Origin: Shewanella sp. KX20019
GTDB lineage: Bacteria > Pseudomonadota > Gammaproteobacteria > Enterobacterales > Shewanellaceae
Assembly: GCF_016757755.1 (NCBI RefSeq)
Contig: NZ_CP068437.1
Location: forward strand, 761,588-785,587
Direction: 5' to 3'
Length of the DNA: 24,000 nt
Of this stretch, positions 3,838 to 24,000 are shown one piece after another; position 1 is the stretch's first letter; each line of letters begins with the position of its first letter. A program made the position numbers and the translations under genes. Under the pieces are notes generated by a model. That model was not told the DNA's origin and made no database searches. It saw only the letters and a list, made by a program, of their open reading frames with translations.

Positions 3838-4392
3838 CTAGACAAGTAATGTAACCACACCCAATACGGCGAACAATACTGCGCAGCCGCGATGGATCCA
3901 GTGCATAGGCAGTTTTTCTGCACTAAAGTGGCCGGCGATAACGACCGGCACATTAGCGATTAGCATGCCAAGCGTGGTGCCCATCACAACCATAGCTAAT
4001 GCATCGTATTTGGCTGAGAGTACTACAGTGGCTATCTGGGTTTTATCACCCATCTCGGCAATAAAAAACAGGAAAAAAGTGGCTAAGAAAGGCCCCATGG
4101 CATAAAAGCGGCTCTCCTCTTCATCAACTTTATCAGGAATAAGCACCCACAGTGCAATGGCAAAAAATGATGCAGCGACTAGGTAGCGACCAACTTCTGG
4201 ACTGATAAAACTAATAGCCCATTGACCAAGCCAAGCGGCGGCAAAATGGTTTGCAAGTGTCGACAGAAAAATACCGAGAATAATGGCGGTTTTATTTTTG
4301 AAACGAACCGCTAGAATGAGCGCGAGTAGCTGTGTTTTATCACCGATTTCGGCAATAGCAACAGTAAAGGTTGAGGCGAGAAAAGCTTCCAC
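3838..4392 (-). CDS. UPF0016 / GDT1 / TMEM165-family cation (Mn2+/Ca2+) exporter, MneA-like
   Basis: 184 aa with a GTG start and an AGGAA SD. Two internal repeats each carry the E-x-G-D-K-T motif (AEIGDKTQ and AEMGDKTQ). About 6 hydrophobic helices. Confidence 0.8.
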   Translation of the reverse strand: MEAFLASTFTVAIAEIGDKTQLLALILAVRFKNKTAIILGIFLSTLANHFAAAWLGQWAISFISPEVGRYLVAASFFAIALWVLIPDKVDEEESRFYAMGPFLATFFLFFIAEMGDKTQIATVVLSAKYDALAMVVMGTTLGMLIANVPVVIAGHFSAEKLPMHWIHRGCAVLFAVLGVVTLLV

Positions 4393-4460: not shown

Positions 4461-4600
4461 GTGCTCAGGTCTTGCTGGGTTAACGACATAGTCATTAACT
4501 GTAAGTACCATGGCATTTGGCCAATTATGTTGATACTTACTCAATCGATGCTGATGTGTTGCAAAGATTGATAGCTACTCCCCCGAAGCAGAGCCGAGCA
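4461..4600 (-). promoter_or_regulatory. Probable yybP-ykoY (Mn2+) riboswitch aptamer in the 5' leader of the UPF0016 gene
   Basis: The minus strand reads ...cttcGGGGGAGTAGCtatc...(about 100 nt)...cccaGCAAGACCTGagc. GGGGAGUAGC and GCAAGACCU are the two most conserved blocks of the yybP-ykoY motif as I recall the L. lactis and E. coli examples. Downstream, at about 4415-4453, a GGGGAGG/CCTCCCC hairpin precedes the SD. The genomic context (metal exporter) fits. Confidence 0.6.
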
Positions 4601-6464: not shown

Positions 6465-8621
6465 ATGAAGAAATGGCTTTTGACAGTAGCTATCGCGACC
6501 TCTTTTGGCGCTGTGGCTGACGAAGGTATGTGGCAGCCCTATCAGCTTCCTGCGATGGCAGATGAGCTGAAGGCAAAGGGACTTGAAATTGACGTTAATT
6601 CGATTTCAAAACTTACCGAATATCCAATGAATGCCGTGATTAGCCTTGGTGGTTGTACGGCATCATTTGTATCTCCAAAAGGCCTAGTGGTGACAAACCA
6701 TCACTGCGCTTACGGCTCAATTCAATACAACTCTACGCCAGAAAAGAACCTGTTGCGTGATGGCTTCTTAGCTAAGTCATTTGGCGAGGAGCTGGCTGCA
6801 ACGCCGGGTTCACGTATTTTCGTAACTGAGAGCGTAGTAGATGTAACTGACAAGGTCAAAACAGGCCTTGAAAATGAAATCGGTAATGCGTTTTACAAAG
6901 GCATTGAGCAGCAAGAAAAGAGCTTAGTTGCGGAGTGTGAGCAAGAAGACGGTTACCGTTGTCAGGTTTACAGCTTCCACGGCGGCCTTGAGTATTACCT
7001 CGTTAAGCAGCTTGAAATTCGCGATGTACGTTTAGTGTATAACCCAGCAGCAAGCGTCGGTAAGTACGGCGGCGATGTTGACAACTGGATGTGGCCACGC
7101 CACACAGGCGATTATTCTTTCTACCGTGCTTATGTATCTAAAGACGGTAAGCCAGCAGACTTTAGCAAAGACAATGTGCCATACGAGCCAAAGAGTTTCC
7201 TGAAAGTGTCAGCTAAAGGCGTCAGTGACGGTGATTTTGTGATGGTTGCTGGTTATCCTGGGCGCACCAACCGCTACCGCACCGCTAACGAAGTTGAAAA
7301 CCAATTTGAGTGGTCGTATCCAGAAGGCAAAGTCTTGCGTGAACGTCTAATTGAGATCATCAAAGACACCGCGCCAGAAGGCAGCGATGAGCGCATCAAG
7401 TATGAAAGCTCAATTGCAGGTCTTGCTAATTACGCTAAAAACTTCACTTCGATGATCGAGTTCTATGGTAAATCAACTATGCTCGATGACCGTAAAGGGC
7501 TAGAGCAAGACTTAGCAAACTGGATCAAAGCTGATAAAAAACGCCAAGCTAAATATGGCGAAGTGCTGGCCCAGCTTGATAAGTTAATTGCTAAGGGGCA
7601 GCAAGGACAAGAGCGCGATTTACTGATGAGCTACATGGGTTACAGCACCATGTTAAGCACGGCTGACCGCTTATATCGTTTAGCGAATGAAAAAGCCTTG
7701 CCAGATATGCAGCGTGAGCCAGGTTATCAAGAGCGTGATATGACCCGCTTTACCTCTGGTATGGAGCGTATTGAGCGTCGTTATGCAGCCAGTGTTGATA
7801 AAGCGATGCTAGCGGACTTAATCGGCCGTTACGCAGCACTGCCACAAGATCAGCGCTTACCGGCGTTTGATAAAGCCTTTGGTATTAATAACAACTTTGA
7901 CGCGGCTAAGTTCAATAAGACGCTAGATAAGATGTATGCAAATACTAAGCTATCAGACAAAGAAACACGTTTAGCGTGGATGGAAAAGCCTGTAGCTGAC
8001 TTTAACAAGTCAAAAGATCCATTCATTCAGTACGCAGTAGCGACTTTTGATGAACGTATGAAGCGCGAGAAAGAGCGTAAACAGCTTTCGGGTGACTTAA
8101 TGAAGGTTCGTCCACAATACATGGACGCCATCATCGCTTACAACCGTGAACAAGGTAAGCCTGTTTATGCGGATGCTAACTCAAGCCTACGTGTCACCGT
8201 AGGTCATGTGAAAGGTTACTCACCTGAAGATGGCATGCGCGCTGAACCATTTACCCGTCTTGAAGGTATCTTAGCGAAAGACACAGGTGTTGAGCCATTT
8301 AACGCGCCTAAGAAGCAGCTTGAGCTGATTGCCAACAAGCAGTACGGCGATTACTACGTGAAGCCATTAGACTCTGTACCGGTTAACTTCCTATCGACGT
8401 TAGACACTACAGGTGGTAACTCAGGTTCGCCAACCTTGAATGGCCGCGCTGAGCTAGTGGGCCTGCTATTTGACGGCGTATATGAAAGTATCATTGGTGA
8501 TTGGGGTTACGACCCACAGACTAACCGTTCAATTCAGGTTGATAGCCGTTATATGCTTTGGGTAATGAAGTACTTAGATAATGCAGACAACTTGCTTGAA
8601 GAGATGGAAATTGTGCATTAA
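6465..8621 (+). CDS. S46-family dipeptidyl-peptidase (DPP7/DPP11-like), secreted/periplasmic
   Basis: 718 aa. A signal peptide is followed by the hallmark mature N-terminus ADEGMWQP. It has the catalytic His context VVTNHHC and the Ser context TTGGNSGSP, with a long helical insert between them. Confidence 0.85.
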   Translation: MKKWLLTVAIATSFGAVADEGMWQPYQLPAMADELKAKGLEIDVNSISKLTEYPMNAVISLGGCTASFVSPKGLVVTNHHCAYGSIQYNSTPEKNLLRDGFLAKSFGEELAATPGSRIFVTESVVDVTDKVKTGLENEIGNAFYKGIEQQEKSLVAECEQEDGYRCQVYSFHGGLEYYLVKQLEIRDVRLVYNPAASVGKYGGDVDNWMWPRHTGDYSFYRAYVSKDGKPADFSKDNVPYEPKSFLKVSAKGVSDGDFVMVAGYPGRTNRYRTANEVENQFEWSYPEGKVLRERLIEIIKDTAPEGSDERIKYESSIAGLANYAKNFTSMIEFYGKSTMLDDRKGLEQDLANWIKADKKRQAKYGEVLAQLDKLIAKGQQGQERDLLMSYMGYSTMLSTADRLYRLANEKALPDMQREPGYQERDMTRFTSGMERIERRYAASVDKAMLADLIGRYAALPQDQRLPAFDKAFGINNNFDAAKFNKTLDKMYANTKLSDKETRLAWMEKPVADFNKSKDPFIQYAVATFDERMKREKERKQLSGDLMKVRPQYMDAIIAYNREQGKPVYADANSSLRVTVGHVKGYSPEDGMRAEPFTRLEGILAKDTGVEPFNAPKKQLELIANKQYGDYYVKPLDSVPVNFLSTLDTTGGNSGSPTLNGRAELVGLLFDGVYESIIGDWGYDPQTNRSIQVDSRYMLWVMKYLDNADNLLEEMEIVH

Positions 8622-9121: not shown

Positions 9122-9715
9122 CTACGCAACTAACTGAGTCCTGCTAGCCAAAACTGCATCCACGTCAATCCAAAGAGCGACTGAGCGTTCAACTCCAATT
9201 TGCATCGACTTGCCTTTCCCCATTCGTCTTGATGGTATCTCTAGTAACCTAAGAATTCTTTCACATGCAAGGGTAGTGACTAAGACGTAATGTTTGATGT
9301 TATTTTCAATAGCGAAATCAAAGAATGAATTAACTAAGTCCGCTGTGGATGAGGTCACTAGGCTCGTGCCTGCTTGTCCATCACCTTTTTGAATTGCAAA
9401 GCGGCTAATTTCCCACACTTCTTTATTTTGAGGTGCTAGCTCTCCTTGCAGTAGTTCTGGGAATACATCTTTCAACATATATTTTCCTTGAGTAGGGAGA
9501 GCTCTCCAGCAGCCTATGACTTCATCATTGTCGTTGGTCATCGCGATATGAGAAACTTCAAGCTGATCAAAACTGTCTCGTTCAAGGCCATTTGTAGTGC
9601 TTACTTCCCAATCAAGTCTTTGTTTAAAAGTTTGTTCACGTAATTTAAAAATTCTGTTTAACACTGGTTGATTAGTCTTTATATCGCTGTTTTTTAGGAA
9701 TGTAATTTTTTGCAT
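9122..9715 (-). CDS. luxI: LuxI-family acyl-homoserine-lactone synthase
   Basis: The 245-aa ORF in the track is over-extended. ATG 9715 (MQKITFL...) follows a GGTGGA SD and gives 197 aa. LuxI signatures are present: RxxxF..LxW, ERDSFD, GCWRALPT and VWEISRFA. Confidence 0.85.
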   Translation of the reverse strand: MQKITFLKNSDIKTNQPVLNRIFKLREQTFKQRLDWEVSTTNGLERDSFDQLEVSHIAMTNDNDEVIGCWRALPTQGKYMLKDVFPELLQGELAPQNKEVWEISRFAIQKGDGQAGTSLVTSSTADLVNSFFDFAIENNIKHYVLVTTLACERILRLLEIPSRRMGKGKSMQIGVERSVALWIDVDAVLASRTQLVA

Positions 9716-9790
9716 AGTATCCACCTGAAGGTTCCGAAGACATGAGCGAAGATATGAACTTTTTAGGAACGCTATAACTGTCAGTTCTAG

Positions 9791-9810
9791 CTGTGTCAGA
9801 TCTGACAGGT
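9791..9810. promoter_or_regulatory. lux/tra-box-like operator in the divergent luxI / orf306 intergenic region
   Basis: CTGTGTCAGATCTGACAGGT contains a perfect 14-bp palindrome TGTCAGATCTGACA (9794-9807). It matches 13/20 positions of the V. fischeri lux box ACCTGTAGGATCGTACAGGT and shares the CAGATCTG core with the tra box. The centre lies about 85 nt from the luxI ATG and about 73 nt from the orf306 ATG. Confidence 0.5.
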
Positions 9811-9873
9811 AACGTCTTTGAGCAGTTTTGTCTAAGCTAACGGTAAGGATTAATTGCAAGTTGAAATAAGTAT

Positions 9874-10794
9874 ATGAGTGCTCAATTACATAGTTTTTCC
9901 TCCCAAACGCAGGTGGATAAAGAACTGTTGTTCATATTTGATAAGGCACATTACCTATCTAAGAGAGCTGGGTGGGCATGGTCTTTGATTCGAAATGGTC
10001 GACGCGTTAATTCTGGTAGCGGTATGTTCGGATATCCAGCAAGTAACTTACATATTCCGGTTGATGAAACTTGCAACCAAGGAGCGTTATATCTGTCATC
10101 GCCACCTCATGCTGGATTTATTACATGGGACGAACTACTGCCAAATTTAAAAGCTGCAAATATCCTTGAGGTAAATATTCCAAGCGTGCTGGAGGGAAGC
10201 ATCTCACTTGATGACAGTCGGAGGCAACAGGCTGAAAATGGGATTGAAATTTTTTGCCATGAAGTAAAAGGAATAGGTAGTCAAAGTTACTATGGGGCTT
10301 ATTGCTTAAAAATGAAAAAACGGCCCTGGATTACTTGTGTTACGGCTACTGGCATAGGAGGAGGGAATGTTGATTTATCGAATTTTTATGATGAGTTTGG
10401 ATTCAAACAAAGGGTAATTGGCAAAATAAGAGGTAGTCATGCACTCATTATTGATCCAAGAATTAATTGCGAAGTCTTTAAGAAAATCAGGAACGTAGCA
10501 GGCTGTCGTCTACAGACTCATGAATATGAAAGTATTGAGGGACTAAAAGCATTCCTTAGGGGGTTAGAACTAATGGATCTGTCTACAGTCGTTGCGATAG
10601 TCCATCACGATCTCTACCAGACAATGCTTAGTTTGGGCTTGATTGACGAGTTATCAATAAGTTACGAGTTGATGAGTTTGTGCTCAAACGTACAGAGCAC
10701 ATTTACTATACTAGATTATAAAGATTGGCAAATAACAGAATGTAGCCCTTTAAGTTCGGGTATAAATGTTGAATTTATTAATAAGCCATTTTAA
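9874..10794 (+). CDS. Hypothetical 306-aa protein between luxI and luxR (possible degenerate RibD-like fold, speculative)
   Basis: Long uninterrupted ORF divergent from luxI, with no obvious SD. Segments in RibD order include GALYLSSPPHAG, ENGIEIF, KKRPWITCVTATGIGG and GLIDELSISY, but the HAE and PCxxC Zn motifs are absent. Confidence 0.55.
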   Translation: MSAQLHSFSSQTQVDKELLFIFDKAHYLSKRAGWAWSLIRNGRRVNSGSGMFGYPASNLHIPVDETCNQGALYLSSPPHAGFITWDELLPNLKAANILEVNIPSVLEGSISLDDSRRQQAENGIEIFCHEVKGIGSQSYYGAYCLKMKKRPWITCVTATGIGGGNVDLSNFYDEFGFKQRVIGKIRGSHALIIDPRINCEVFKKIRNVAGCRLQTHEYESIEGLKAFLRGLELMDLSTVVAIVHHDLYQTMLSLGLIDELSISYELMSLCSNVQSTFTILDYKDWQITECSPLSSGINVEFINKPF

Positions 10795-10812
10795 TAAAGA
10801 GGAGAAGGTTTT

Positions 10813-10846
10813 TAAGCCCCTAAAATAGTAGACACTCATAGAGTAA
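10813..10846 (+). mobile_element. Solo IS3-family terminal inverted-repeat remnant
   Basis: taagcccctaaaatagtagacactcatagagt aligns with the inner part of the left IR of the intact IS3-family element at 18336-18369 (taagcccctagaacagtagacacttcatagagt). There are 2 mismatches and a 1-nt indel. No transposase gene is adjacent. Confidence 0.55.
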
Positions 10847-11109
10847 TTCTTATCTAACACTAGTTGCGCAGATTCAAGTTTGAACTCTGCACTAAAAAGC
10901 CTTCTTGTACGTTTTCATAGTGTCACTTGTTCACTTATGAGGTGATGATATCACCTCTAACTAGGTGGCCAAATTCACTATACTACTACATACCCTTATC
11001 AAGATTACTTCTTATATTATTTAGCTTTTCTAACAGCAGGGTATGCGTGTGCGCTTGCTGTTTACCCGTAAGGTAGGTAACTTATGGGATGTTAGATTGA
11101 TTTTCAAAC

Positions 11110-11868
11110 ATGGAGCAAGAGTACATGGATAGTAATGTCTTTTCTCAAATTCTACAGAATTTGGAGTTTTTAAAGTCGGCTGAACAACTGAAGACAGCTT
11201 GCGAAGAGTTTTGTTTACTGCTTGGTATACCCTACTATTTAATGGGGATCGTATCCCCTGATTCACTGAATTCCCCTTCTATGAATGTCCTGAGTAATTA
11301 CCCTGAAGAATGGCTTGATAGCTATTTCAAACAGAATAAGCAGAAGGATGATCCCGTCGTAGCTTATATGATGAATAAGCATGCACCGGTTGAGTGGAAC
11401 CAATTACTTCAGCTTAGCCAGTTTAATAATGCACAGAGTCAGAGTTTCATGTTGGAAGCTAAAGAGTACGGTTTAAAAAATGGTCTTAGCATTCCTATTC
11501 GCTCTTCGTTGGGAAAATTTGCAGTGTTTAGTTTAGCGATAGATGATGATAGTGAGGCGGGAAAACGCAAATTAAATGACATTTTGCCTTTCGCACATAC
11601 ATTCGGAGTGAATTTATTTGAAAGGCAAATAAATATAACCTCAGAAGAATCAATAGCAGCTAAATTGACGAATAGGGAGACTGAATGCCTATTTTGGGCA
11701 TGTGAAGGGAAAACCGCCTGGGAGATCTCTCAAATAGTCGATATTACCGAGCGCACGGTTCTATTTCACTTAAATAATTCAACTAAAAAGTTGGGAGCCA
11801 CAAATCGGCAGCATGCTGTTTCTTTGGCTATGCGCTATGGAATAGTGACTCCTAACTTGAGAACGTAA
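11110..11868 (+). CDS. luxR: LuxR-family AHL-responsive transcriptional regulator
   Basis: 252 aa. The N-terminal autoinducer-binding domain has conserved W..Y...D-P (WLDSYF..KDDPVV), W (VEW) and G (GLKNGLSIP). The C-terminal GerE/LuxR HTH is LTNRETECLFWACEGKTAWEISQIVDITERTVLFHLNNSTKKLGATNRQHAV. ATG 11125 (GGAG upstream) is an alternative start. Confidence 0.9.
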   Translation: MEQEYMDSNVFSQILQNLEFLKSAEQLKTACEEFCLLLGIPYYLMGIVSPDSLNSPSMNVLSNYPEEWLDSYFKQNKQKDDPVVAYMMNKHAPVEWNQLLQLSQFNNAQSQSFMLEAKEYGLKNGLSIPIRSSLGKFAVFSLAIDDDSEAGKRKLNDILPFAHTFGVNLFERQINITSEESIAAKLTNRETECLFWACEGKTAWEISQIVDITERTVLFHLNNSTKKLGATNRQHAVSLAMRYGIVTPNLRT

Positions 11869-12013
11869 AGGAAACAAAAGGTTTAATTTACAGATTTAGA
11901 CTTTATTAATTTATTGGCTTTACTTTTATCTTCATAAATGGGTTTATAGCCTAATTTAGTTATATTATTAGTCACTCTGTACTTTGTGTTAATTTATACA
12001 GAATGAATGGTTT

Positions 12014-12042
12014 AGCTCACTTAAACCTTATTTAAGTGAGCT
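12014..12042 (-). terminator. Perfect 12-bp hairpin overlapping the stop codon of the ABC gene (possible end of the lan operon)
   Basis: agctcacttaaa (12014-12025) pairs with tttaagtgagct (12031-12042) around a 5-nt loop. There is no U-tract on either strand. It lies in the convergent luxR / lan-operon spacer. Confidence 0.4.
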
Positions 12043-13620
12043 GGAAATAATAAGTCCATTTCCTGAAATGGTAATGCTGGTATCGAATATATCAGCAAAT
12101 CGCTCTCCCTCATGCATTATCATCATCAACGAAGCACCTTTGGTAAATGTGTCTATTAATTGGATGATAGAGGCTTTACTTGCATCATCTATGTTTGCTA
12201 ATGGCTCGTCAAAGAGGTAAGTTTTTGCTGGCTTTAATAAACATATTGCAATTTGACACTTCTTTTTTTGCCCTTCAGATAAAGAGTCATACTGTGATTC
12301 TAAGCAGTCTTGTAATTTCAGTTCATTTACTAATTGGTCAACCTTATCTTGGCTTTGGTACTTTTCGGCTAATATACTGAGGTTCTTGCCTATACAACCT
12401 GGTAATAAACCGAAAGGATAAAGTGAAGCACTGATATCTTCTAGATTTTGTCCCGATATCTTCCCGCTATTCGGGTGATAGAAACCGGCAAGTAAATTAA
12501 TAAAAGTGCTTTTGCCTGAACCATTAGGCCCACGTATGATTGTTCTATTCGACGCCTCAATATTAATGCTGACATTGTCAAATATCGATTTCCCTTGATG
12601 TTCATATGCAACATCAGTCATTTTTAGACCTGCGTGAGGTAGCCTTTTTTTAGGAGATATCGCTGCCTCATATTTGAATATTCTATACCTAGTGACGAGA
12701 GTATTTAAACTTGCTAGCTGAGGTAAGATAGATGATAGCTGTTGAACTGCATTGATAATCATTGAAAATGCACGTGTTAGTGCAAATAAAGAGCCTATTG
12801 TAATGATGCCTGTAATAACCTGAAAACCTGCTACAACCATTACTGATAATTCAGCGTACGATAGGAAGACCGAGCTTATAGAACGGTACATACTTGAGTA
12901 CTTAACGCTCTGATAGCCTGCGTCAAGAGGTTGCTCTAAGCCATGTTTAACCTCTCTAGTGGCAGTGCCGTCTAAGCTATTTAATTTAACTAATTTGAAG
13001 CTATCAATCACAGTAGATAGAATTGATTTGAATTCAGCTTCAGATTCATGGAGTTTTTCTGTTACGACACCGATCTTTCCACTAAACTGACTTGCAAGTA
13101 AGTAAAGGATAGGCAAGATTATGACTAGACCCAAAGTGACCTTCCAGCTAATCCAGACTGCGACGCCAATGCCTGAAATAGCGACAACAACCCCAGTAAG
13201 CATTGATACTGCTGTATCTACCACTGTCGCCAGATGTTTAGGTTCATCATGGATTCTGGATATATAGTACCCTTTACCGTTCGAATCAATCTCTTTACAG
13301 TCCTGTAAGTAATAGATGGAGGTGAGCTCGATGCTCATTTGCTGCTGTAAGTTATTTTTAACTTGCTTACGCAGTAAAGAGGTAAAGTAGCCAATTAACC
13401 TACCAGCGGTAACAACCCCTGTAACGGCCAACGAGAGAATGACAAAGTAGCGCGTATTTCCATCTGTAATGGCATCAATTAGATATTTTATAGCCATCGG
13501 GTCCAAGATTGTAAAGACGACGGCTTGTAAAATACTTAGTGTAAAAAGCAAGCTAAGTTTAACCTTTTGCGGGTAAAGTAATTTATAGATCTCTTGCAGA
13601 TTCTCTTTGCTTATTGACAT
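12028..13620 (-). CDS. ABC exporter, fused permease-ATPase half-transporter (no C39 peptidase domain)
   Basis: 530 aa. The N-terminal half is hydrophobic with about 6 TM helices. Walker A is GPNGSGKST, the signature is LSEGQKKK and Walker B is YLFDEP. The start lies 13 nt after the LanKC stop, indicating an operon. Confidence 0.85.
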   Translation of the reverse strand: MSISKENLQEIYKLLYPQKVKLSLLFTLSILQAVVFTILDPMAIKYLIDAITDGNTRYFVILSLAVTGVVTAGRLIGYFTSLLRKQVKNNLQQQMSIELTSIYYLQDCKEIDSNGKGYYISRIHDEPKHLATVVDTAVSMLTGVVVAISGIGVAVWISWKVTLGLVIILPILYLLASQFSGKIGVVTEKLHESEAEFKSILSTVIDSFKLVKLNSLDGTATREVKHGLEQPLDAGYQSVKYSSMYRSISSVFLSYAELSVMVVAGFQVITGIITIGSLFALTRAFSMIINAVQQLSSILPQLASLNTLVTRYRIFKYEAAISPKKRLPHAGLKMTDVAYEHQGKSIFDNVSINIEASNRTIIRGPNGSGKSTFINLLAGFYHPNSGKISGQNLEDISASLYPFGLLPGCIGKNLSILAEKYQSQDKVDQLVNELKLQDCLESQYDSLSEGQKKKCQIAICLLKPAKTYLFDEPLANIDDASKASIIQLIDTFTKGASLMMIMHEGERFADIFDTSITISGNGLIISSSLK

Positions 13621-13633
13621 GAATATACCCTTA

Positions 13634-16297
13634 TTAGCCTAAGTCATGTAACCAACGAGGCTGTCCATCAACGAGCCTCTGCAGAAACAACCCTATACCT
13701 GAAGAACCAAACGCTAAATCAGTGGATAAGCGTTGTGCAAATTTACCCGGATAGATATGGCCATTAGGTTTTTCGATTGAAAATTGCATTATGCTATCCG
13801 CGATATGACGAGCTGACTGTAGGTAAATTGGATCCTTAGTTGCTCGATTAATATCCAGTAATAACTCCCCTAATCCAGCTAGTCCATTAAAGCTGCCTTG
13901 CTCTGCGGAATATCGAGAAAAATTATTGGTCGCCAAAGGTTGTAATAAGTTGAGATAGAAAATGGATTGGGTAACTTCATAGAATCGAACTATCACAGCG
14001 CCAATCCCAGCTGCGCCAAACTCCCAGTAAGGAAGGCGTTGGTCGCTATCGGATGTTTCTCCCCAGCTCAGAGGGTTTTTAGCTTCTAAGCCAATATTGA
14101 TATCATAGCGTATGGCATCTTCAGCTTGCTCTAAGGTGTCTTTGGAGCCGTTGAACTTATAAAGCTGTAACAGAAATAGTGCTATGCCTGAGCTACCATG
14201 TATTAGACCTATATGCTCTTTACTGTCATCTTCTTGCGGGTATCGTGTGCCACTGGAGCTGGCAATACTCATACTCTCAAGTCGACATGCGATATCAGCA
14301 GCATATTCCAAATAACTGTCATCATTAGTTTTCTTGTAAACTGAAAGTAACATGAACCCAATACCCGCTAAGCCATATCCAAAACTGCAGCATTGATTCA
14401 ATAGCGGGGATTGAATACTCTTTCGGGCTAAATACTCGGCTTTCTCTAGTCGCCCAATCTCAATTTCTGCCAATGCCATACCCGCAGAACCAACTAATAT
14501 CCCCGGTGCGACATTGGTTTGCATTGCATTATCTATTTTATCTATAAGGTGATTAGGTACCGTTCTTCCTGCGCGGGTGAGCATCACTGCTGGTCCGTAG
14601 TAGCCGTATGCAATGGCATTTTTATGTAAGTCGAAGGCTCTGTAATCTAGAGGAACGAAGTTTTTACTCGTCTTACGTTCAACTCCTGTTTCAATAAAGC
14701 GGGCAATCTCGCTAACTTCATGCTGGATCTGTTTGTCGTCGAATAGGCTCGGAGTCGAGGGTAATATCTTGTATGGTTGCGCATGCTTTTCAGCTATTTG
14801 TGGTTGGAACTGCTGCGCTAAGGTGAAAACTAGTTTTTTCGCTTCTAGATGCTGACTATTGGCAAGAAGTTTAATGACCTCGCTAATACGAGTATCTAAT
14901 TTACAATCTTGTTCTAGCTTAGTTAATAGTTTCCAGCAAATGGGTTTATGGAGATCGAAAAAATTTTGAATGGGTAATATCATGCTATAAAGCACCATTG
15001 AAAGAGCATACCAGTCACCCGCAAACGTATTGCCGTTTTTAAGCAGTAAGTCATAATCACTAAAGCCTGGCGTTGTCAGCACCGGAATATTTTCTCTGTC
15101 TATCACAACATTCTCATGATCCAATTTGTAAGAGCCATCAAAGTCTATGAAGCGAATAGTGTGTCTTTCTCCATCAACCATAATATTATTTGGAGAAATA
15201 TCACCTAATACTATGTTTGCATCATGTGCGACTTCAATTGCTTCAATACAACTATTAGCGATCCAAGCGAACACACCTTTGAATCGCTCAGCAGATGCAC
15301 TCGTTCCTGTAAATGGCACTAGAGTACATTCATTACTGGCTCTAAATTGCCTTAATGTGATCCCCGTTACAAACTCTTCAACAAGGAATGAGTGCTCCCA
15401 CTCAAGAAACCAATCGATCGCTTTTGGAAAGTACTGACAATCTTGCAGTGCCTGCAAAGTGTCGTATTCGTTTTGTAGTACTCTTTCGGCATAGACGCTG
15501 GCCTTAGTCATAGAGCGAAAGCTGATATTAGGGCGAGCTTCCTTTATAACCACTTCTGATTTTGTCTTTAGATCTAGGGCTTTATATACACCTCCACTAT
15601 TTGAAAATGCCAATGCCTCGAGTATTTGATAGCGTTGTTTTAGGGGCGTGTTGGTTTCATTTATTGGTAGTGGTTCGGGAAACGGTTCAGCAATCCAATC
15701 TGGTAATTGATAGAAGGGTGTTCGAAGATCCTCCGTGAGCAGTCCGGTGTTATTTTTGATGCAAGCGACTGATTTTCCGCTTACTTGAAGCTTGGGTAAA
15801 AGTAAAAATCCACCATAGCGATAGTGAACTACTTGACTATCTTTGTATCGTTTATCTGACAGTATATAGGGGCCACTGTTGGCTTCTAGAGCGACGTGAA
15901 GTGCGTCTATTAGCGTACGAAAAATGGCATTATTCTGTGGATATATTGTAATCAGCTTTCCTGCACTGCTACGCGAACATGACTTTGAATTCATATTCCC
16001 AGCAATATCTTTGCGACAAATAACTTTAAATGCAGTTCCATACTTTATGCAACAAGCGACTGTTTTTTCTATAACATCAATAATTTCATTCTGTACTGAT
16101 GAAATGTGTATTTTAAAGCCTTGCAAGGGTAAATTTAGAGGGCCATTTGATGCTGACAGCCAAATGCTCTTACGTGTAATAATCCAATAATCAGGCAATA
16201 ATTTTTTGATAGTATCTTCATAGAGTTCGTCGGCAGATAACTCCGTAGGGTGAGTAAAGAAATATCGATCTCCATACGTATAAAGATTATTGCTCAT
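13634..16297 (-). CDS. lanKC: Class III lanthipeptide synthetase (LanKC-type: phospho-Ser/Thr lyase + Ser/Thr kinase + LanC-like cyclase without Zn ligands)
   Basis: 887 aa. The lyase region has GFKIHISS and GKLITIYP...YRYGGF. The kinase has GGVYKA...VVIKEARP, the catalytic loop GDISPNNIMV and IRFIDFDGS. The C-terminus has six GxxG-type LanC repeats including GLIHGSSG. The WCxG and CHG Zn-ligand positions read WEFGAAG and LAFGSSG. Confidence 0.85.
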   Translation of the reverse strand: MSNNLYTYGDRYFFTHPTELSADELYEDTIKKLLPDYWIITRKSIWLSASNGPLNLPLQGFKIHISSVQNEIIDVIEKTVACCIKYGTAFKVICRKDIAGNMNSKSCSRSSAGKLITIYPQNNAIFRTLIDALHVALEANSGPYILSDKRYKDSQVVHYRYGGFLLLPKLQVSGKSVACIKNNTGLLTEDLRTPFYQLPDWIAEPFPEPLPINETNTPLKQRYQILEALAFSNSGGVYKALDLKTKSEVVIKEARPNISFRSMTKASVYAERVLQNEYDTLQALQDCQYFPKAIDWFLEWEHSFLVEEFVTGITLRQFRASNECTLVPFTGTSASAERFKGVFAWIANSCIEAIEVAHDANIVLGDISPNNIMVDGERHTIRFIDFDGSYKLDHENVVIDRENIPVLTTPGFSDYDLLLKNGNTFAGDWYALSMVLYSMILPIQNFFDLHKPICWKLLTKLEQDCKLDTRISEVIKLLANSQHLEAKKLVFTLAQQFQPQIAEKHAQPYKILPSTPSLFDDKQIQHEVSEIARFIETGVERKTSKNFVPLDYRAFDLHKNAIAYGYYGPAVMLTRAGRTVPNHLIDKIDNAMQTNVAPGILVGSAGMALAEIEIGRLEKAEYLARKSIQSPLLNQCCSFGYGLAGIGFMLLSVYKKTNDDSYLEYAADIACRLESMSIASSSGTRYPQEDDSKEHIGLIHGSSGIALFLLQLYKFNGSKDTLEQAEDAIRYDINIGLEAKNPLSWGETSDSDQRLPYWEFGAAGIGAVIVRFYEVTQSIFYLNLLQPLATNNFSRYSAEQGSFNGLAGLGELLLDINRATKDPIYLQSARHIADSIMQFSIEKPNGHIYPGKFAQRLSTDLAFGSSGIGLFLQRLVDGQPRWLHDLG

Positions 16298-16339
16298 AAA
16301 AGTTCCTTTTTTTAATGCACGTAATATTCTAAATTAAAT

Positions 16340-16367
16340 ACGCCGCAGTAAAGGTAATTACTGCGGC
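16340..16367 (-). terminator. Putative attenuator / partial terminator between the precursor genes and lanKC
   Basis: cgccgcagtaa (16340-16350) pairs with ttactgcggcg (16357-16367) around a 6-nt loop. On the minus strand it is followed by tatttaattt. It sits between the lanA4 stop (16421) and the lanKC ATG (16297). Confidence 0.45.
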
Positions 16368-16420
16368 GACTAAACAAATATTAGTGGAAAATTGTTTACT
16401 AATAATTGTTCACGGTTTTT

Positions 16421-16519
16421 CTAGTTTTGTTCACCGCAATGATTACTGATTGTGCTCCATTCCATTAACTCAGCATCGGAAGAACTAGTAAGCGATTGCA
16501 ATTTAAGTATGTTATTCAT
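16421..16519 (-). CDS. lanA4: Class III lanthipeptide precursor A4: MNNILKLQSLTSSSDAELMEWSTISNHCGEQN (32 aa)
   Basis: Hand-translated; not in the ORF track. AAGGAA SD. The leader ILKLQSL is ILELQ-like and the core is S-T-I-S-N-H-C. The C-terminal tail differs from the other copies. Confidence 0.75.
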   Translation of the reverse strand: MNNILKLQSLTSSSDAELMEWSTISNHCGEQN

Positions 16520-16555
16520 TAAATCAATTCCTTTTGTTGGGTATCTAGTTTTGTG

Positions 16556-16660
16556 TTAGTCTTGTCCGCGGTCGCCGCAATGGTTACTGATCGTACTCCA
16601 TTCCATTAGTTCAGCATCAGAAGAGGTGGCAAGTGTTTGTAGATTTAGTATGTTATTCAT
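16556..16660 (-). CDS. lanA3: Class III lanthipeptide precursor A3: MNNILNLQTLATSSDAELMEWSTISNHCGDRGQD (34 aa)
   Basis: Hand-translated; not in the ORF track. AAGGAA SD 8 nt upstream. Leader ILNLQTL and core STISNHC. Confidence 0.8.
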   Translation of the reverse strand: MNNILNLQTLATSSDAELMEWSTISNHCGDRGQD

Positions 16661-16696
16661 TAATTCAATTCCTTTTATTTGGTATCTAGTTTTGTA

Positions 16697-16801
16697 TTAG
16701 TCTTGTCCGCGGTCGCCGCAATGGTTACTGATCGTGCTCCATTCCATTAATTCAGCATCAGAAGAGGCAGCAAGTGTTTGTAGATTTAGTATGTTATTCA
16801 T
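16697..16801 (-). CDS. lanA2: Class III lanthipeptide precursor A2: MNNILNLQTLAASSDAELMEWSTISNHCGDRGQD (34 aa)
   Basis: Hand-translated; not in the ORF track. AAGGAA SD. Leader ILNLQTL and core STISNHC. Confidence 0.8.
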   Translation of the reverse strand: MNNILNLQTLAASSDAELMEWSTISNHCGDRGQD

Positions 16802-16837
16802 TATTTTAATTCCTTTTGTTTGGTATCTAGTTTTGTA

Positions 16838-16942
16838 TTAGTCTTGTCCGCGGTCGCCGCAATGGTTACTGATCGTGCTCCATTCCATTAGTTCAGTATC
16901 AGCAGAGGCAGCAAGTGTTTGTAGGTTTAGTATATTGTTCAT
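16838..16942 (-). CDS. lanA1: Class III lanthipeptide precursor A1: MNNILNLQTLAASADTELMEWSTISNHCGDRGQD (34 aa; an in-frame ATG at 16945 would add one Met)
   Basis: Hand-translated; not in the ORF track. AAGGAA SD. Leader ILNLQTL and core STISNHC. It is the first gene of the operon. Confidence 0.8.
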   Translation of the reverse strand: MNNILNLQTLAASADTELMEWSTISNHCGDRGQD

Positions 16943-17013
16943 CATTTAAATTCCTTTTGTTTTGATTGTCTGTTTGACAGAGTAAAGACTATTTGAAATT
17001 TAGTTTTTAGAAA

Positions 17014-17033
17014 AGCTGTAACAATTAACAGGG
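17014..17033 (-). promoter_or_regulatory. Candidate lux-box-like dyad upstream of the precursor array
   Basis: The minus strand reads CCCTGTTAATTGTTACAGCT, a CTG-N10-CAG dyad with CCTGT/ACAG arms. It matches 12/20 positions of the V. fischeri lux box. A TAGTCT -10-like hexamer at 16991-16986 would place the dyad centre near -44. Confidence 0.3.
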
Positions 17034-17285
17034 TAGTAATTGTGATTAGTTACACTAAATGCTTTAAATTGTTTTTAGTTTTGTAATAAAGGTCGCTGGC
17101 TAGGTTCAGGATTTGTTTAAAATAAACAAATTAATGGTTGTGTCTAATCTCTATATTCACATATTTAAACTTGCTAATAGTAGTTGCACAACATATTTTA
17201 TTTTCACTTCGTATTTATACAAAGGTACTCATTAATAATTATTAGTGCGACGAGTGAGGCTCCCCCAGGGCAACCGCATGAGTGC

Positions 17286-18328
17286 TTAGTTTTCAACCTC
17301 CGCACTCAAGCCTGCAATTAAAACGCTTTCAAGCATCACTGGATTCATTAAACACCGCTTCTGTTTACCGACAATACTCAGTTTGGTTGGCTCTGAACGC
17401 AACATATTCAACGCCATATGACGTAAACAAGCTAAGTTTTCTGCACCGTTATCTTTATAAATCTGGCAAGCATCCTCATCCATACTGACATCGAGCACCC
17501 AATGCATTGACTCGATACCCCAATGTTCACGTACTGCAGACGCGGCCTGCTTAGCGCTCAATTCCTTTGAACTGATGTAGTAACGATACTCAAGTCCAAC
17601 GGACTTACCCTGTTTGTATCGAAAGCTTTCTATCATGATGATACTTTTTAAGTTCTTCCACCGCGTAAAGTTGCCATCAAGCTCTTGCGCATTTAACACG
17701 GTGCATTGTCGAGACTCAATTCGACCATGTCCTTTTTCAAAGTCTATCTTACCCAATACGGCTAAGCGTGTTGGTTTAAAGGATTTTTCAATGGCTTGTC
17801 GCAACTTGCCTTGATTGCTTTTAACCGCGAGTAAATAGTCACCATCTTGAGCTACAATCGTCCTAGCTATCTTTGTCTGGCAAGCCATAGCATCAATTGT
17901 GACTACAGCTCCGCGTAAATCGAGAATCTTAAGCAGTTCTGGAATAGCAGTGATTTCATTGCCTTTCTGAGCCGTTTTAACCTGACCAAGCACGAGTTTG
18001 TTTGATGAAGTGTAGGCACTTATCATGTGAATGGTACTTGACCTGTCTTCGCGGTTATACGAACCACGAAGTGTTTTCCCATCAATAGCGATCACTTGAC
18101 CTTCTGTCAGAGCATGAATCGATTGCATCCAGGCTAAAAAGCATTGTTGGAATTGCTCTGGTTCAATCCTCGAGAGAATACGAGCAATAGTGTCATCAGC
18201 TGGAATATCGTTTATAAACATGCCATTGCTTTTAAACCATTGATGGTGGTCTAAGATATACTCTCTAATATCAAACCAACCTTTAGCGCCCGCAATAACG
18301 GCGCAAAGGGAACCGAATAAGACCTCAA
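17286..18328 (-). pseudogene. ISAs1-family (H-repeat/YhhI-like) DDE transposase gene, 5'-truncated by an IS3-family insertion
   Basis: The track ORF starts at ATG 18221, but the frame stays open upstream (...FEVLFGSLCAVIAGAKGWFDIREYILDHHQWFKSNG-MFINDIPADDTIARI...) right up to the IS3 IR. It is collinear with E. coli YhhI as recalled (AIDGKTLRGS, ITAIPELL, TIDAMACQ, REHWGIES). About 20-25 N-terminal codons are missing. Confidence 0.75.
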
Positions 18329-19569
18329 AGAGTGGTAAGCCCCTAGAACAGTAGACACTTCATAGAGTTATACTTAACCAAAAATATGAGGTGTTACATG
18401 CGCGGAAAACGATATCCCGATGAGTTCAAAATTGAAGCCGTTAAACAGGTCACTGAACGTGGCTATAAAATAGCAGATGTTGCTGACAGATTAGGGGTTA
18501 CTTCCAAAAGTTTGCACAACTGGATTAACAAGTTTGATAAGCCAGAAAAGCAGCACATCACCATTGATAATCAGCAAGACGAAATACGTAAGCTCAAGGC
18601 GGAGCTTCGCCGTGTAACCGAAGAGCGAAACATCCTAAAGGAGGCCGCCGTGTACTTTGCAAGCGAGTCAAAGAAAAGTACACGTTCATAAAGTCTAGGC
18701 TCAAGCAGTATCCTGTGAAAATCTTATGCGAAATACTTGGAGTCCATCGTAGTGGTTTCTATGCCTGGCTGAAGGAACCTCAGAGTCGAAGAGCGACTGA
18801 AGACAAACGCTTGCTGGGTAAGATTAAACAGTTTTGGCTGGAAAGTGGTTGCGTTTATGGCTATCGAAATATCACCTTGGACCTTAAAGATGATGGTGAA
18901 GTTGTTGGTAAAAACCGTGTATATCGAATCATGAAACAGGCTGAAATTAAAGCTGTACGAGGTTATAAACGCAATCCAACCTTTGGCGGAGGCGATGTTA
19001 ACCATACGGCACCTAATACATTAAATCGAGGCTTTGATGTCGTCAAACCCAATATGATTTGGGTGACCGATTTCACTTATATTCGTACCCATGAAGGCTG
19101 GCTGTATCTCACCGTTGTGATAGACCTTTTTTCAAGACAAGTCGTAGGATGGACGATGAAAAGTACACCGAAGGCAGAGTTAGTTATAGATGCTCTATTG
19201 ATGGCTATATGGAGACGCTCACCTACAGAAAAGGTGCTAATACATTCCGATCAAGGAGTGCAATATACCTGCTCAGATTGGCGTAGTTTTCTAAAAGAGC
19301 ACAACCTTGAAGCCAGTATGAGCCGAAGAGGAAACTGCCATGATAATGCTGTCGCTGAGAGTTTCTTCTCGCTGCTGAAAAAAGACAGGGTTAAGCGAAA
19401 AGTCTATAAAACCAGAGATGAAGCACGCTCAGAAGTATTTAACTATATCGAATATTTCTATAATCCAGTGCGGCATCATGGTAGTAATAATGGACTGTCT
19501 CCGATCAAGTTCGAGAAGCAGTATTATGAAAACCTAGAAAGGTCTAGAAAACTGGGGGCTTACCACTCA
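18329..19569 (+). mobile_element. Intact IS3-family insertion sequence (about 1.24 kb)
   Basis: Imperfect terminal IRs: left (a)gagtggtaagcccctagaacagtagac, and the reverse complement of the right end tgagtggtaagcccccagttttctagac. Between them lie orfA and orfB in the 0/-1 frame arrangement. Boundaries are good to about 1-2 nt, and no clear target duplication was seen. Confidence 0.85.
18386..18691 (+). CDS. IS3-family transposase OrfA (HTH + leucine-zipper region)
   Basis: 101 aa. Motifs are RYPDEFKIEAVKQV, the HTH IADVADRLGVTSKSLHNWI, and the C-terminal ILKEAAVYFASES typical of IS3 OrfA. Confidence 0.9.
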   Translation: MRCYMRGKRYPDEFKIEAVKQVTERGYKIADVADRLGVTSKSLHNWINKFDKPEKQHITIDNQQDEIRKLKAELRRVTEERNILKEAAVYFASESKKSTRS

Positions 19570-19572
19570 TAA
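18715..19572 (+). CDS. IS3-family transposase OrfB (DDE catalytic domain; normally made as an OrfAB fusion by -1 frameshift)
   Basis: It is in the -1 frame relative to orfA, and the frame is open upstream well into orfA. A-rich TCAAAGAAAAG (18668-18678) is a candidate A-AAG-type slippery region. The DDE residues are in WVTDFTYI, IHSDQGVQY and NAVAESFF. The stop codon lies just outside the right IR. Confidence 0.9.
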   Translation: MKILCEILGVHRSGFYAWLKEPQSRRATEDKRLLGKIKQFWLESGCVYGYRNITLDLKDDGEVVGKNRVYRIMKQAEIKAVRGYKRNPTFGGGDVNHTAPNTLNRGFDVVKPNMIWVTDFTYIRTHEGWLYLTVVIDLFSRQVVGWTMKSTPKAELVIDALLMAIWRRSPTEKVLIHSDQGVQYTCSDWRSFLKEHNLEASMSRRGNCHDNAVAESFFSLLKKDRVKRKVYKTRDEARSEVFNYIEYFYNPVRHHGSNNGLSPIKFEKQYYENLERSRKLGAYHS

Positions 19573-23691: not shown

Positions 23692-24000
23692 TTACTTTTG
23701 TTGGAATTGGTACTCCTTTACGGGCTTAGCGCCAAGCAGATGTTCTACAAAATAATCCCAACGTTTACGCACAAAGTAGTCACTGTCATTTAGGAAGTGG
23801 TTACGGTTAGGGTAGATCATCAAGTCAAAATCTTTGTTGGCTTTTATCAGTTTATCGACCAGTTGCAGTGTGGCAGCAGGGTTAACATTATCGTCAAGTT
23901 CACCATGGGCTAGCAGTAGCTTACCTTTGAGTTTGGCAATACTGTCCATATTTAAGTTGCTTTGCTGATCCCAATGTTTGGCGACGGGGTAGCCTAACCA
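23692..24000 (-). CDS. C-terminal part of an S9-family (DPP-IV / prolyl oligopeptidase-type) serine peptidase, partial at the window edge
   Basis: The frame is open to position 24000 (WLGYPVAKHWDQQSNLNMDSIAKLKGKLLLAHGELDDNV...YPNRNHFL). LLxHGxxDDNV and the terminal His are the catalytic Asp/His region of S9B peptidases. Confidence 0.75.
   Translation of the reverse strand, partial: WLGYPVAKHWDQQSNLNMDSIAKLKGKLLLAHGELDDNVNPAATLQLVDKLIKANKDFDLMIYPNRNHFLNDSDYFVRKRWDYFVEHLLGAKPVKEYQFQQK

Follow-up and report, generated by a model that had tools for sequence, protein, structure and literature searches.

Class III lanthipeptides are made by LanKC synthetases, which combine three domains and have a cyclase free of metal ligands. 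In the described systems (labyrinthopeptins, SapB/RamC, the thuricin-type ThurKC and curvopeptin), the enzyme is accompanied by several tandem precursors and an ATP-binding cassette (ABC) exporter, with no protease in the cluster. The precursors are marked by an LxLQ motif in the leader and an S-x2-S-x2-5-C motif in the core, and genome mining has found LanKC genes mostly in Actinobacteria and Firmicutes (PMC7268733). A 2022 study reported the first lanthipeptides to be characterised from gammaproteobacteria, which belong to class II; the sole proteobacterial class III product of that study is from Myxococcus fulvus, and the characterised class III peptides in the literature searched come from Actinobacteria, Firmicutes and this one myxobacterium (PMC9576775). 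Here, a 24,000-nt stretch of the marine gammaproteobacterium Shewanella sp. KX20019 was analysed (contig NZ_CP068437.1, positions 761,588 to 785,587; this whole stretch is called the window, and coordinates are given within it). It carries a class III lanthipeptide operon (lan) next to the genes of a quorum-sensing circuit of the acyl-homoserine lactone (AHL) type, a combination pointed out in an earlier note that was made from the letters alone; the statement in that note that class III systems come mostly from Actinobacteria and Firmicutes agrees with both papers cited above. Based on our analysis of gene linkage and predicted binding sites, it is probable that the AHL circuit (LuxI/LuxR) directly switches on the class III operon in this horizontally acquired island.

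Bactobolin, phenazines, carbapenem and violacein are known examples of products whose gene clusters are linked to luxR. In Proteobacteria generally, a luxR gene, often with luxI, lies inside or beside such clusters and is presumed to be the regulator. The 2018 survey by Brotherton, Medema and Greenberg has a lanthipeptide among its luxR-linked types; the survey gives no class, organism, boxes or partners for it, and its text-form supplements list no lanthipeptide cases (PMC5872303). The KX20019 locus resembles the surveyed clusters in its layout, but differs in that the product is of class III and that boxes which are conserved allow a regulon (luxI, orf306-macAB, lanA) to be deduced. Autoinduced lantibiotics of Gram-positive bacteria, such as nisin and subtilin, also have their production tied to cell density, as is predicted here. 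There, the LanRK two-component system senses the peptide, which is its own signal, whereas a separate AHL and a one-component receptor are predicted in KX20019. It is already known that quorum control of metabolite clusters is common in Proteobacteria and that proteobacterial class III enzymes are annotated, and the sequences treated here are not new. No description of an AHL-controlled class III lanthipeptide, of such a gene set or of the RibD-fold partner was found in the full-text literature searched, a body that leaves many subscription papers outside. The earlier note knew of no described AHL-LuxR class III system in a Gram-negative organism; this holds in so far as no paper was found, but related loci (LanKC 53-60% identical) do exist in public databases.

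The lan operon is encoded on the minus strand. Its synthetase gene lanKC (13634-16297) encodes 887 amino acids with lyase, kinase and cyclase domains, each of them identified by Pfam (RamC_N, 2.7e-51; Pkinase, 1.5e-14; LANC_like, 3e-25), which bears out the first description of the protein as a LanKC-type synthetase. It scores 640 bits against the NCBIfam class III model NF038151 (cut-off 575). A class IV (LanL) identity was rejected, the score of 424 bits with NF038150 being under the cut-off of 650. The whole of LanKC can be aligned with 8sao, a class III enzyme of solved structure (6e-88), and the protein is 100% identical to a protein named "class III lanthionine synthetase LanKC" by NCBI, from Shewanella sp. 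KX20019 (5.3-Mb contig). The lyase residues K62 and H64 and the kinase residues K252, D366, N371 and D385 are invariant in 15 gammaproteobacterial relatives. Across 15 clade members, no invariant Cys or His is found in the cyclase domain (residues 560-887); the Cys/Cys/His zinc ligands are thus absent, which fits the metal-independent cyclase of class III.

Upstream of lanKC lie four tandem precursor genes, lanA1-4 (16421-16945, minus strand; singly 16421-16519, 16556-16660, 16697-16801 and 16838-16942/5), encoding 32-35 amino acids each. The four precursors read MNNILNLQTLAASSDAELMEWSTISNHCGDRGQD with minor variation. The leader (MNNILNLQ..) carries LxLQ and the core (..EWSTISNHCG..) carries S-x2-S-x2-C, with STISNHC present in all four copies. 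Each of them passes the cut-off of the NCBIfam model lanthi_III_a (NF038154; 33-38 bits vs 22), and the genes form a 141-bp tandem repeat of 87-89% identity. The lanT-like exporter gene (12028-13620, minus strand, 530 amino acids) has the Pfam domains ABC_membrane and ABC_tran. Four precursor genes and an ABC exporter had been predicted in the earlier note, and both are confirmed by these models. Orthologues of the exporter, 45-67% identical, directly follow LanKC in all clade loci. Pfam finds no peptidase domain in the exporter, and the cluster encodes no protease. Between lanA4 and lanKC, a GC-rich hairpin with a T-rich tail (16341-16368, minus strand) has an 11-pair stem with 7 G-C pairs (CGCCGCAGTA..TACTGCGGCG, then TATTTAATTT). 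It is probably a partial terminator, which would raise the ratio of precursor to enzyme transcripts.

By its synthetase domains, its class III score and its precursor motifs, the cluster is assigned to class III, and modification of the peptides is predicted. It shares with the described systems the three-domain LanKC with its metal-ligand-free cyclase, the leader and core motifs, the tandem precursors, the exporter and the lack of a cluster protease. It is unlike them in its marine gammaproteobacterial host and in its very short core, which holds the single ring motif WSTISNHCG. The cluster also differs in encoding an AHL-type LuxI and LuxR and in having lux boxes at its promoter, while its relatives add a MacAB-type tripartite pump.

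The quorum-sensing genes are situated on the exporter side of the operon. For luxI (9122-9715, minus strand), the mechanical open reading frame runs to 9859, but translation likely starts from the ATG at 9715, for which there is a ribosome-binding site (AGGTGGA) and which gives a protein of 197 amino acids (homologues have 184-197). LuxI matches Pfam Autoind_synth (2.3e-30), and its closest solved relative is LasI (1ro5), to which it aligns over the whole domain (2e-33); from its family, it is expected to make an AHL. LuxI homologues, 59-71% identical, adjoin the same partners in other loci. The luxR gene (11110-11868, plus strand) encodes a full-length AHL-type receptor and transcription factor, with Autoind_bind (2.8e-29) and a C-terminal helix-turn-helix of the GerE type (2.5e-16). 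In an end-to-end alignment with QscR and LasR, the protein retains the AHL-pocket residues Tyr, Trp, Asp and Trp (NYP..W, DP, W). It is 73-84% identical to the LuxR of related clusters, vs 53-60% for LanKC. No element conserved among relatives was found upstream of luxR. Between luxI and luxR lies orf306 (JK628_03370; 9874-10794, plus strand), which encodes a protein of 306 amino acids with a RibD-like fold and no zinc ligands, as described below. The 315-bp gap between orf306 and luxR contains the palindrome GAGGTGATGATATCACCTC (10939-10957), which is not shared with relatives; it could be the orf306 terminator or the scar of a pump-gene deletion. The gene order that had been read from the letters (luxI, a palindrome, a 306-aa gene, luxR and a converging lan operon) was recovered in full, at or near the positions first given.

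Two predicted lux boxes would connect the quorum-sensing genes and the operon. The first one, CTGTGTCAGATCTGACAGGT (9791-9810), is a 20-bp lux/tra-type dyad in the divergent promoter region of luxI and orf306 (9716-9873, 158 bp). It has a perfect 14-bp core, TGTCAGATCTGACA, at 9794-9807, and it is centred 85.5 nt from the ATG of luxI and 73.5 nt from that of orf306. Box 1 is adjoined by the invariant block ATAACTGTCAGTT (9774-9786), in which the near-palindrome AACTGTCAGTT is contained (9776-9786). A 37-nt block, ATAACTGTCAGTT-N7-TGTyAGATCTGACAGGT, is invariant in five otherwise diverged luxI/orf306 intergenic regions, the proteins of these five loci being 45-84% identical. The ATAACTGTCAGTT segment may represent the promoter core or a second operator. 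The second box, CCCTGTTAATTGTTACAGCT on the lanA strand (17014-17033, minus strand), is a CTG-N10-CAG dyad at the promoter of the lanA operon. It is centred 81.5 nt upstream of the lanA1 ATG, and a TAGTCT hexamer is found 22 nt downstream of the box. Box 2 aligns (CCTGT-N10-type) with the proximal lanA boxes of Shewanella sp. SR44-3 and Ferrimonas, which have a second lanA box 39-40 nt further upstream.

The boxes were scored with a symmetrised matrix built from nine boxes of relatives only, the sites of the window and of Microbulbifer being kept out of the training. Box 1 (24.2 bits) and box 2 (15.3 bits) are the two best scores in the 24-kb window, so that the palindrome by luxI and the second lux-like dyad at the operon promoter, both noticed earlier from the letters, rank first and second. 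In comparison, in 300 first-order Markov shuffles of the window, the best hit had a mean of 10.7 bits, a 95th percentile of 15.2 and a maximum of 19.5; for the second-best hit, the 95th percentile stood at 11.4. In the held-out Microbulbifer locus, the top four hits in 22.6 kb lie upstream of luxI (22.9), orf311 (19.7) and lanA (18.7 and 15.8). Seventy LanKC loci outside the clade (1.33 Mb) gave three hits of at least 15 bits, i.e., about one per 445 kb. Only one of these control hits exceeds 18 bits: CCCTGTCAGTTCTGACAGTA, with 20.9 bits, in the metagenome-assembled genome of an uncultured Aquimonas, a xanthomonad (L060 1548-1567). LuxR-type control of class III clusters may therefore reach beyond the marine clade. 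The site CCCTGTCAGTTCTGACAGTA is located ~550 nt upstream of the xanthomonad LanKC gene.

The distance between box and promoter is also conserved. A TAnnnT hexamer starts 21-22 nt past the lanA-proximal box in six of the seven clade loci (the hexamers seen are TAGTCT, TATTGT, TAGGAT, TATAAT, TATAGT and TATATT). With this hexamer taken as the -10 element, the centre of the box falls near -43.5, in the stead of a -35 element. Both TraR (at class II promoters) and LuxR (at the luxI promoter) act from an activator position of the -42.5 type. The geometry of the lanA-proximal box thus suggests an activator site. The predicted regulon comprises luxI, orf306 and the lanA operon; in relatives, orf306 is joined by the pump and luxR.

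The closest relatives of LanKC were found by a scan of one genome per species plus further look-ups. They occur in marine gammaproteobacteria at 45-60% identity, which answers the question of taxonomic spread raised with the first description: Shewanella sp. SR44-3 (59%), Ferrimonas kyonanensis (55%), Microbulbifer sp. EKSA005 (53%), and Pseudoalteromonas, Arsukibacterium and Rheinheimera (45-47%). Further carriers are Ferrimonas sp. SCSIO 43195 and a number of metagenomic contigs. Two core types exist in the clade, (E/D)WSTISNHCG and SWS(T/I)LSGVCRTLA; the WSTISNHCG type is also found in Microbulbifer and Pseudoalteromonas rubra.

The lan operon and the luxI/luxR module co-occur in three genera (Shewanella, two Ferrimonas and one Microbulbifer), in four arrangements. 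In the SR44-3 type, shared with metagenomic relatives, three to eight lanA genes, lanKC and lanT converge on luxR-macB-ATPase-MFP-orf310 (MFP, membrane fusion protein), with luxI divergent. On a Logan contig the whole quorum-sensing block is inverted and still abuts lanT. In Microbulbifer sp. EKSA005, luxR stands by itself and is inverted, orf311 and the pump genes come next on the other strand, and luxI is downstream of them. The two Ferrimonas have differing defence-type insertions of 5-6 kb between lanT and luxR, a spot which looks like an insertion hotspot. The insertion of F. kyonanensis (L001 15298-18736) is Hachiman-like, with HamA, a helicase and integrase fragments, and the one of Ferrimonas sp. 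SCSIO 43195 (L091 14536-19298) holds RelA_SpoT, NA37 and DUF4231 genes.

In relatives, a MacB-type permease (MacB_PCD and FtsX), an ABC ATPase and an HlyD-type MFP are encoded between orf306 and luxR, with a lux box of their own (L010 15377-19774; L081 4668-9053; L083 6602-10987; L090 16671-21038; L006 15795-20250; also in L009). This pump probably carries the peptide out of the periplasm or shields the producing cell. The corresponding gap of the KX20019 window (10795-11109) contains no MacAB/MFP pump, and tblastn finds no remnant of it; compared with its relatives, KX20019 appears to have lost the pump operon, a difference that the earlier note had missed. Its luxI-orf306-luxR trio is closest to a short metagenomic form, with 84% identity in LuxR, after which comes a GGDEF gene.

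Boxes upstream of lanA are also present in three more distant members, Arsukibacterium (23.5 bits), Rheinheimera (19.7 bits) and Pseudoalteromonas sp. SMS1 (18.0 bits), which carry the pump operon and a metallo-beta-lactamase-fold gene as well. The regulators of these members are of the GerE type, ~160-220 amino acids long, with no recognisable autoinducer domain, and no luxI is found nearby. A Lactamase_B_2 gene adjoins the pump or regulator genes in the GerE-only loci (L006 14717-15781 and L008 15675-16787). Judging from these gene neighbourhoods, the peptide family is wider than the AHL link, which is limited to the branch with Shewanella, Ferrimonas and Microbulbifer.

Direct control of the lan operon by the AHL circuit is favoured because the linkage of the two modules survives rearrangement and because the lanA boxes are conserved at a fixed distance from a -10-like hexamer. 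The proposal of AHL-LuxR control over the lanthipeptide operon is thereby supported in silico by linkage, boxes and promoter geometry. Several observations nevertheless weigh against it. Box 2 is the weakest of all lanA boxes, its 15.3 bits being about equal to the 95th percentile of the best hit in shuffled 24-kb sequence, and taken alone it is only marginally significant. The related trio with 84% LuxR identity precedes a GGDEF gene and not a lan operon, which indicates that the trio can exist without lan genes, at least on that side; a luxI-orf306-luxR trio without an adjacent lan operon is also seen in L084/L085 and in more distant loci. This would be expected if the modules were neighbours only through shared mobile DNA, with LuxR running luxI, orf306 and the pump of the relatives while the lan operon is controlled separately. 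Such a co-travel is considered unlikely, since the linkage outlasts four rearrangements in three genera, and since strong lanA boxes stand in every clade locus for which sequence is available, with a fixed spacing to the hexamer and against a background of about one per 445 kb.

Other points concern the state of the KX20019 cluster itself. The distal lanA box of SR44-3, Ferrimonas and Microbulbifer is missing, which leaves box 2 as the only lanA box of KX20019, with the lowest score of them all. The pump operon carried by all close relatives is gone without a remnant, and two insertion sequence (IS) elements, ISAs1 and IS3, are found directly upstream of the operon, with IS sequence 250 nt from the lanA promoter. 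The pump loss and the nearby IS mean that the cluster may be partly disabled. It might even be a decaying remnant, whose genes are intact and from which the secreted peptide is no longer made. We give this possibility a rather low probability: all nine coding sequences are full length with their catalytic residues conserved, and the four precursors have been kept nearly identical. Moreover, a pump-less short luxI-orf306-luxR form exists elsewhere, and a MacAB paralogue could be located at another site of the 5.3-Mb genome.

The last points relate to the nature of the regulation. Its direction is not readable from the sequence, activation being a prediction. In addition, the distant members pair similar boxes with GerE-type regulators that have no recognisable AHL domain and no luxI, so that the boxes alone are no proof of AHL dependence. 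LuxR might thus be a repressor relieved by AHL, like EsaR, or might answer a non-AHL ligand. Both are regarded as very improbable, given that the box precedes the -10-like hexamer by 21-22 nt, at the place of the -35 element, which is an activator geometry, and that a cognate LuxI is encoded beside a receptor which has kept its AHL-pocket residues.

With direct activation as the preferred reading, the following course of events can be proposed. The LasI-like LuxI would synthesise an AHL and, at high cell density, AHL-bound LuxR would occupy the two 20-bp CTG-N10-CAG boxes, as the pocket residues and the conserved boxes suggest. At box 1, this would give positive feedback on signal synthesis and drive expression of the RibD-fold orf306. 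At box 2, ~43-44 nt upstream of the likely lanA start, LuxR would replace the -35 element and activate the four near-identical precursors. The hairpin after lanA4 would pass some of the transcripts on to lanKC and the exporter, the precursor staying in excess. LanKC would then phosphorylate and eliminate Ser/Thr in W-S-T-I-S-N-H-C and close a single lanthionine or labionin ring. The ABC exporter would carry the peptide over the inner membrane, and the leader would be cut off by a protease encoded outside the cluster.

Under laboratory conditions, the majority of class III clusters stay silent. In the present case, the likely inducer (an AHL), the receptor and the predicted sites are all encoded by the cluster, which would provide a direct handle to switch it on and to find the peptide and its function. 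If the proposed control is true, a small-molecule quorum signal would govern a ribosomal peptide in a Gram-negative bacterium.

The protein encoded by orf306 has no Pfam or NCBIfam match, with nothing but noise at E-values up to 10. Word-indexed search retrieved five clusters of its family, and exhaustive profile search of 1.84 billion proteins retrieved 61 representatives, so the family is rare. A profile search of solved structures gave no match. The AlphaFold model built from 57 sequences reached a predicted local distance difference test (pLDDT) score of 88.4 and a predicted template-modelling (TM) score, pTM, of 0.88, compared with a pLDDT of 55 from five sequences. Foldseek matched this model to RibD/RibG over both domains (E 7e-13, TM 0.58-0.66, ~12% identity), and the top 20 matches are all RibD/RibG-type chains, a few of the entries being titled otherwise. 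According to the model, the two-domain fold would consist of a cytidine-deaminase-like and a dihydrofolate reductase (DHFR)-like domain. Among the seven hits of a word-indexed search with the family profile, one is a true RibD (E 7e-6). RibD_C is detected in three of the 57 family members, with a best E-value of 0.0046, under the Pfam cut-off. In the deaminase-like half (positions 1-150), no His or Cys reaches 30% conservation across the 57 members, so the zinc site is absent and the protein is described as RibD-fold. It resembles RibD/RibG in its whole-protein fold, but not in sequence or in zinc ligands. An identity as RibD was rejected, as the zinc ligands are missing and RibD_C stays under the cut-off. 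The conservation pattern indicates that orf306 is probably not a deaminase.

Three accessory genes, rsaL, rsaM and mupX, have been described between luxI and luxR, all of them negative regulators, and five genes in this position were left unassigned in a 2012 survey (PMC3386692). Like these genes, orf306 is located between luxI and luxR and co-occurs with the pair across many genomes. Unlike their products, its product has ~306 amino acids and a RibD-like two-domain fold and matches no RsaL, RsaM or amidase model; an identity as RsaL, RsaM or MupX was rejected, for it has no family match and shares with them only the position. Members of the orf306 family (besides the window gene, those at L010 19799-20731; L090 15700-16635; L092 8001-8933; L093 8001-8951; L094 6001-6930; L095 281-1201, among others) stand beside luxI and/or luxR in all ten contexts inspected, four of which are distant and have no lan genes nearby. 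Because this neighbourhood is retained in all contexts examined, even without lan genes, orf306 is assigned to the quorum-sensing module on the grounds of gene context, and it possibly adds a new accessory component to AHL circuits, for which it is a testable candidate. The 306-aa gene had first been described as unknown; the lack of a family match is upheld, while its membership of a conserved quorum-sensing module had been missed.

In one of the distant contexts, a Logan contig (SRR20959686; L092 1-9764), the orf306 homologue and luxI come directly after phenazine-type genes, with luxR at the other end. The phenazine-type genes encode an isochorismatase, a chorismate-binding/GATase protein, a flavin monooxygenase and an asparagine-synthase-like protein. 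In GCA_021412365.1 (L093 1646-6722), a luxI-orf316-luxR trio adjoins five tandem, near-identical genes for 72-aa Cys-less proteins and two DUF6895 genes; this locus may be another quorum-linked multi-copy peptide cluster.

Taken together, the lan and quorum-sensing results would define a Gram-negative family of AHL-controlled class III lanthipeptides with the core WSTISNHCG and make orf306 a fourth kind of accessory gene for LuxI/LuxR circuits. We put this joint reading forward tentatively, as possible but doubtful in its full extent. If true, secretion would take place in two steps, by the LanT-type exporter to the periplasm and by the lux-box-controlled MacAB/TolC-type pump outward. The peptide would then be a quorum-controlled public good, either antimicrobial or surface-active in the manner of SapB. 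The product of orf306, following RsaL, RsaM and MupX, would be a pseudoenzyme of RibD descent, able to bind a small ligand and to tune the synthesis or reception of the signal.

The block has a G+C content of 39.0%, vs 46-49% in the genes of the left flank, in line with the AT-richness noticed at first. Its flanks consist of ordinary genes: on the left, chromosomal genes for a thioesterase, a catalase, a GDT1-family transporter, a Tyr/Trp permease and an S46 peptidase, and on the right, genes for a fatty-acid hydroxylase, a Crp-like regulator and a pseudouridine synthase. The chromosomal contexts of the clusters differ, as they are found after proBA, after murB/birA and, in KX20019, after the S46 peptidase gene. 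The differing contexts, the lower G+C content and the IS elements together support horizontal acquisition of the whole gene set, as had been suspected from composition and IS debris.

Such debris had been placed on both flanks of the block in the earlier note, but the IS elements are confined to the lanA side. On the luxI side, a 500-bp AT-rich gap contains no detectable IS remnant. The ISAs1-family transposase open reading frame (17286-18221, minus strand) is N-terminally truncated: it scores 381 bits with NF033564 over profile positions 36-314 of 314, with ~35 N-terminal profile residues missing and a partial DDE_Tnp_1_assoc domain. The IS3-family element (18330-19568, plus strand; orfA 18386-18691, orfB 18715-19572) is complete, with 32-nt terminal inverted repeats and the domains HTH_Tnp_1 and rve. 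It may have inserted into the older ISAs1-family IS. The distance between the IS3 element and the 5' end of the truncated transposase frame is ~110 nt.

The S46 dipeptidyl-peptidase gene (6465-8621) is directly left of the island, and an S9 prolyl-oligopeptidase fragment (23692-23949) is situated at the right end of the window. A role of these neighbours in leader removal, for which the cluster has no protease, is unlikely because they are not conserved in the relatives. A tRNA that could mark the island boundary was sought in the window and none was found, the single RNA match being a manganese (yybP-ykoY) riboswitch far to the left (4477-4588, minus strand; 45.5 bits, barely over the gathering score of 45). 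This riboswitch sits upstream of the GDT1-family transporter gene (3838-4392), which is an ordinary arrangement.

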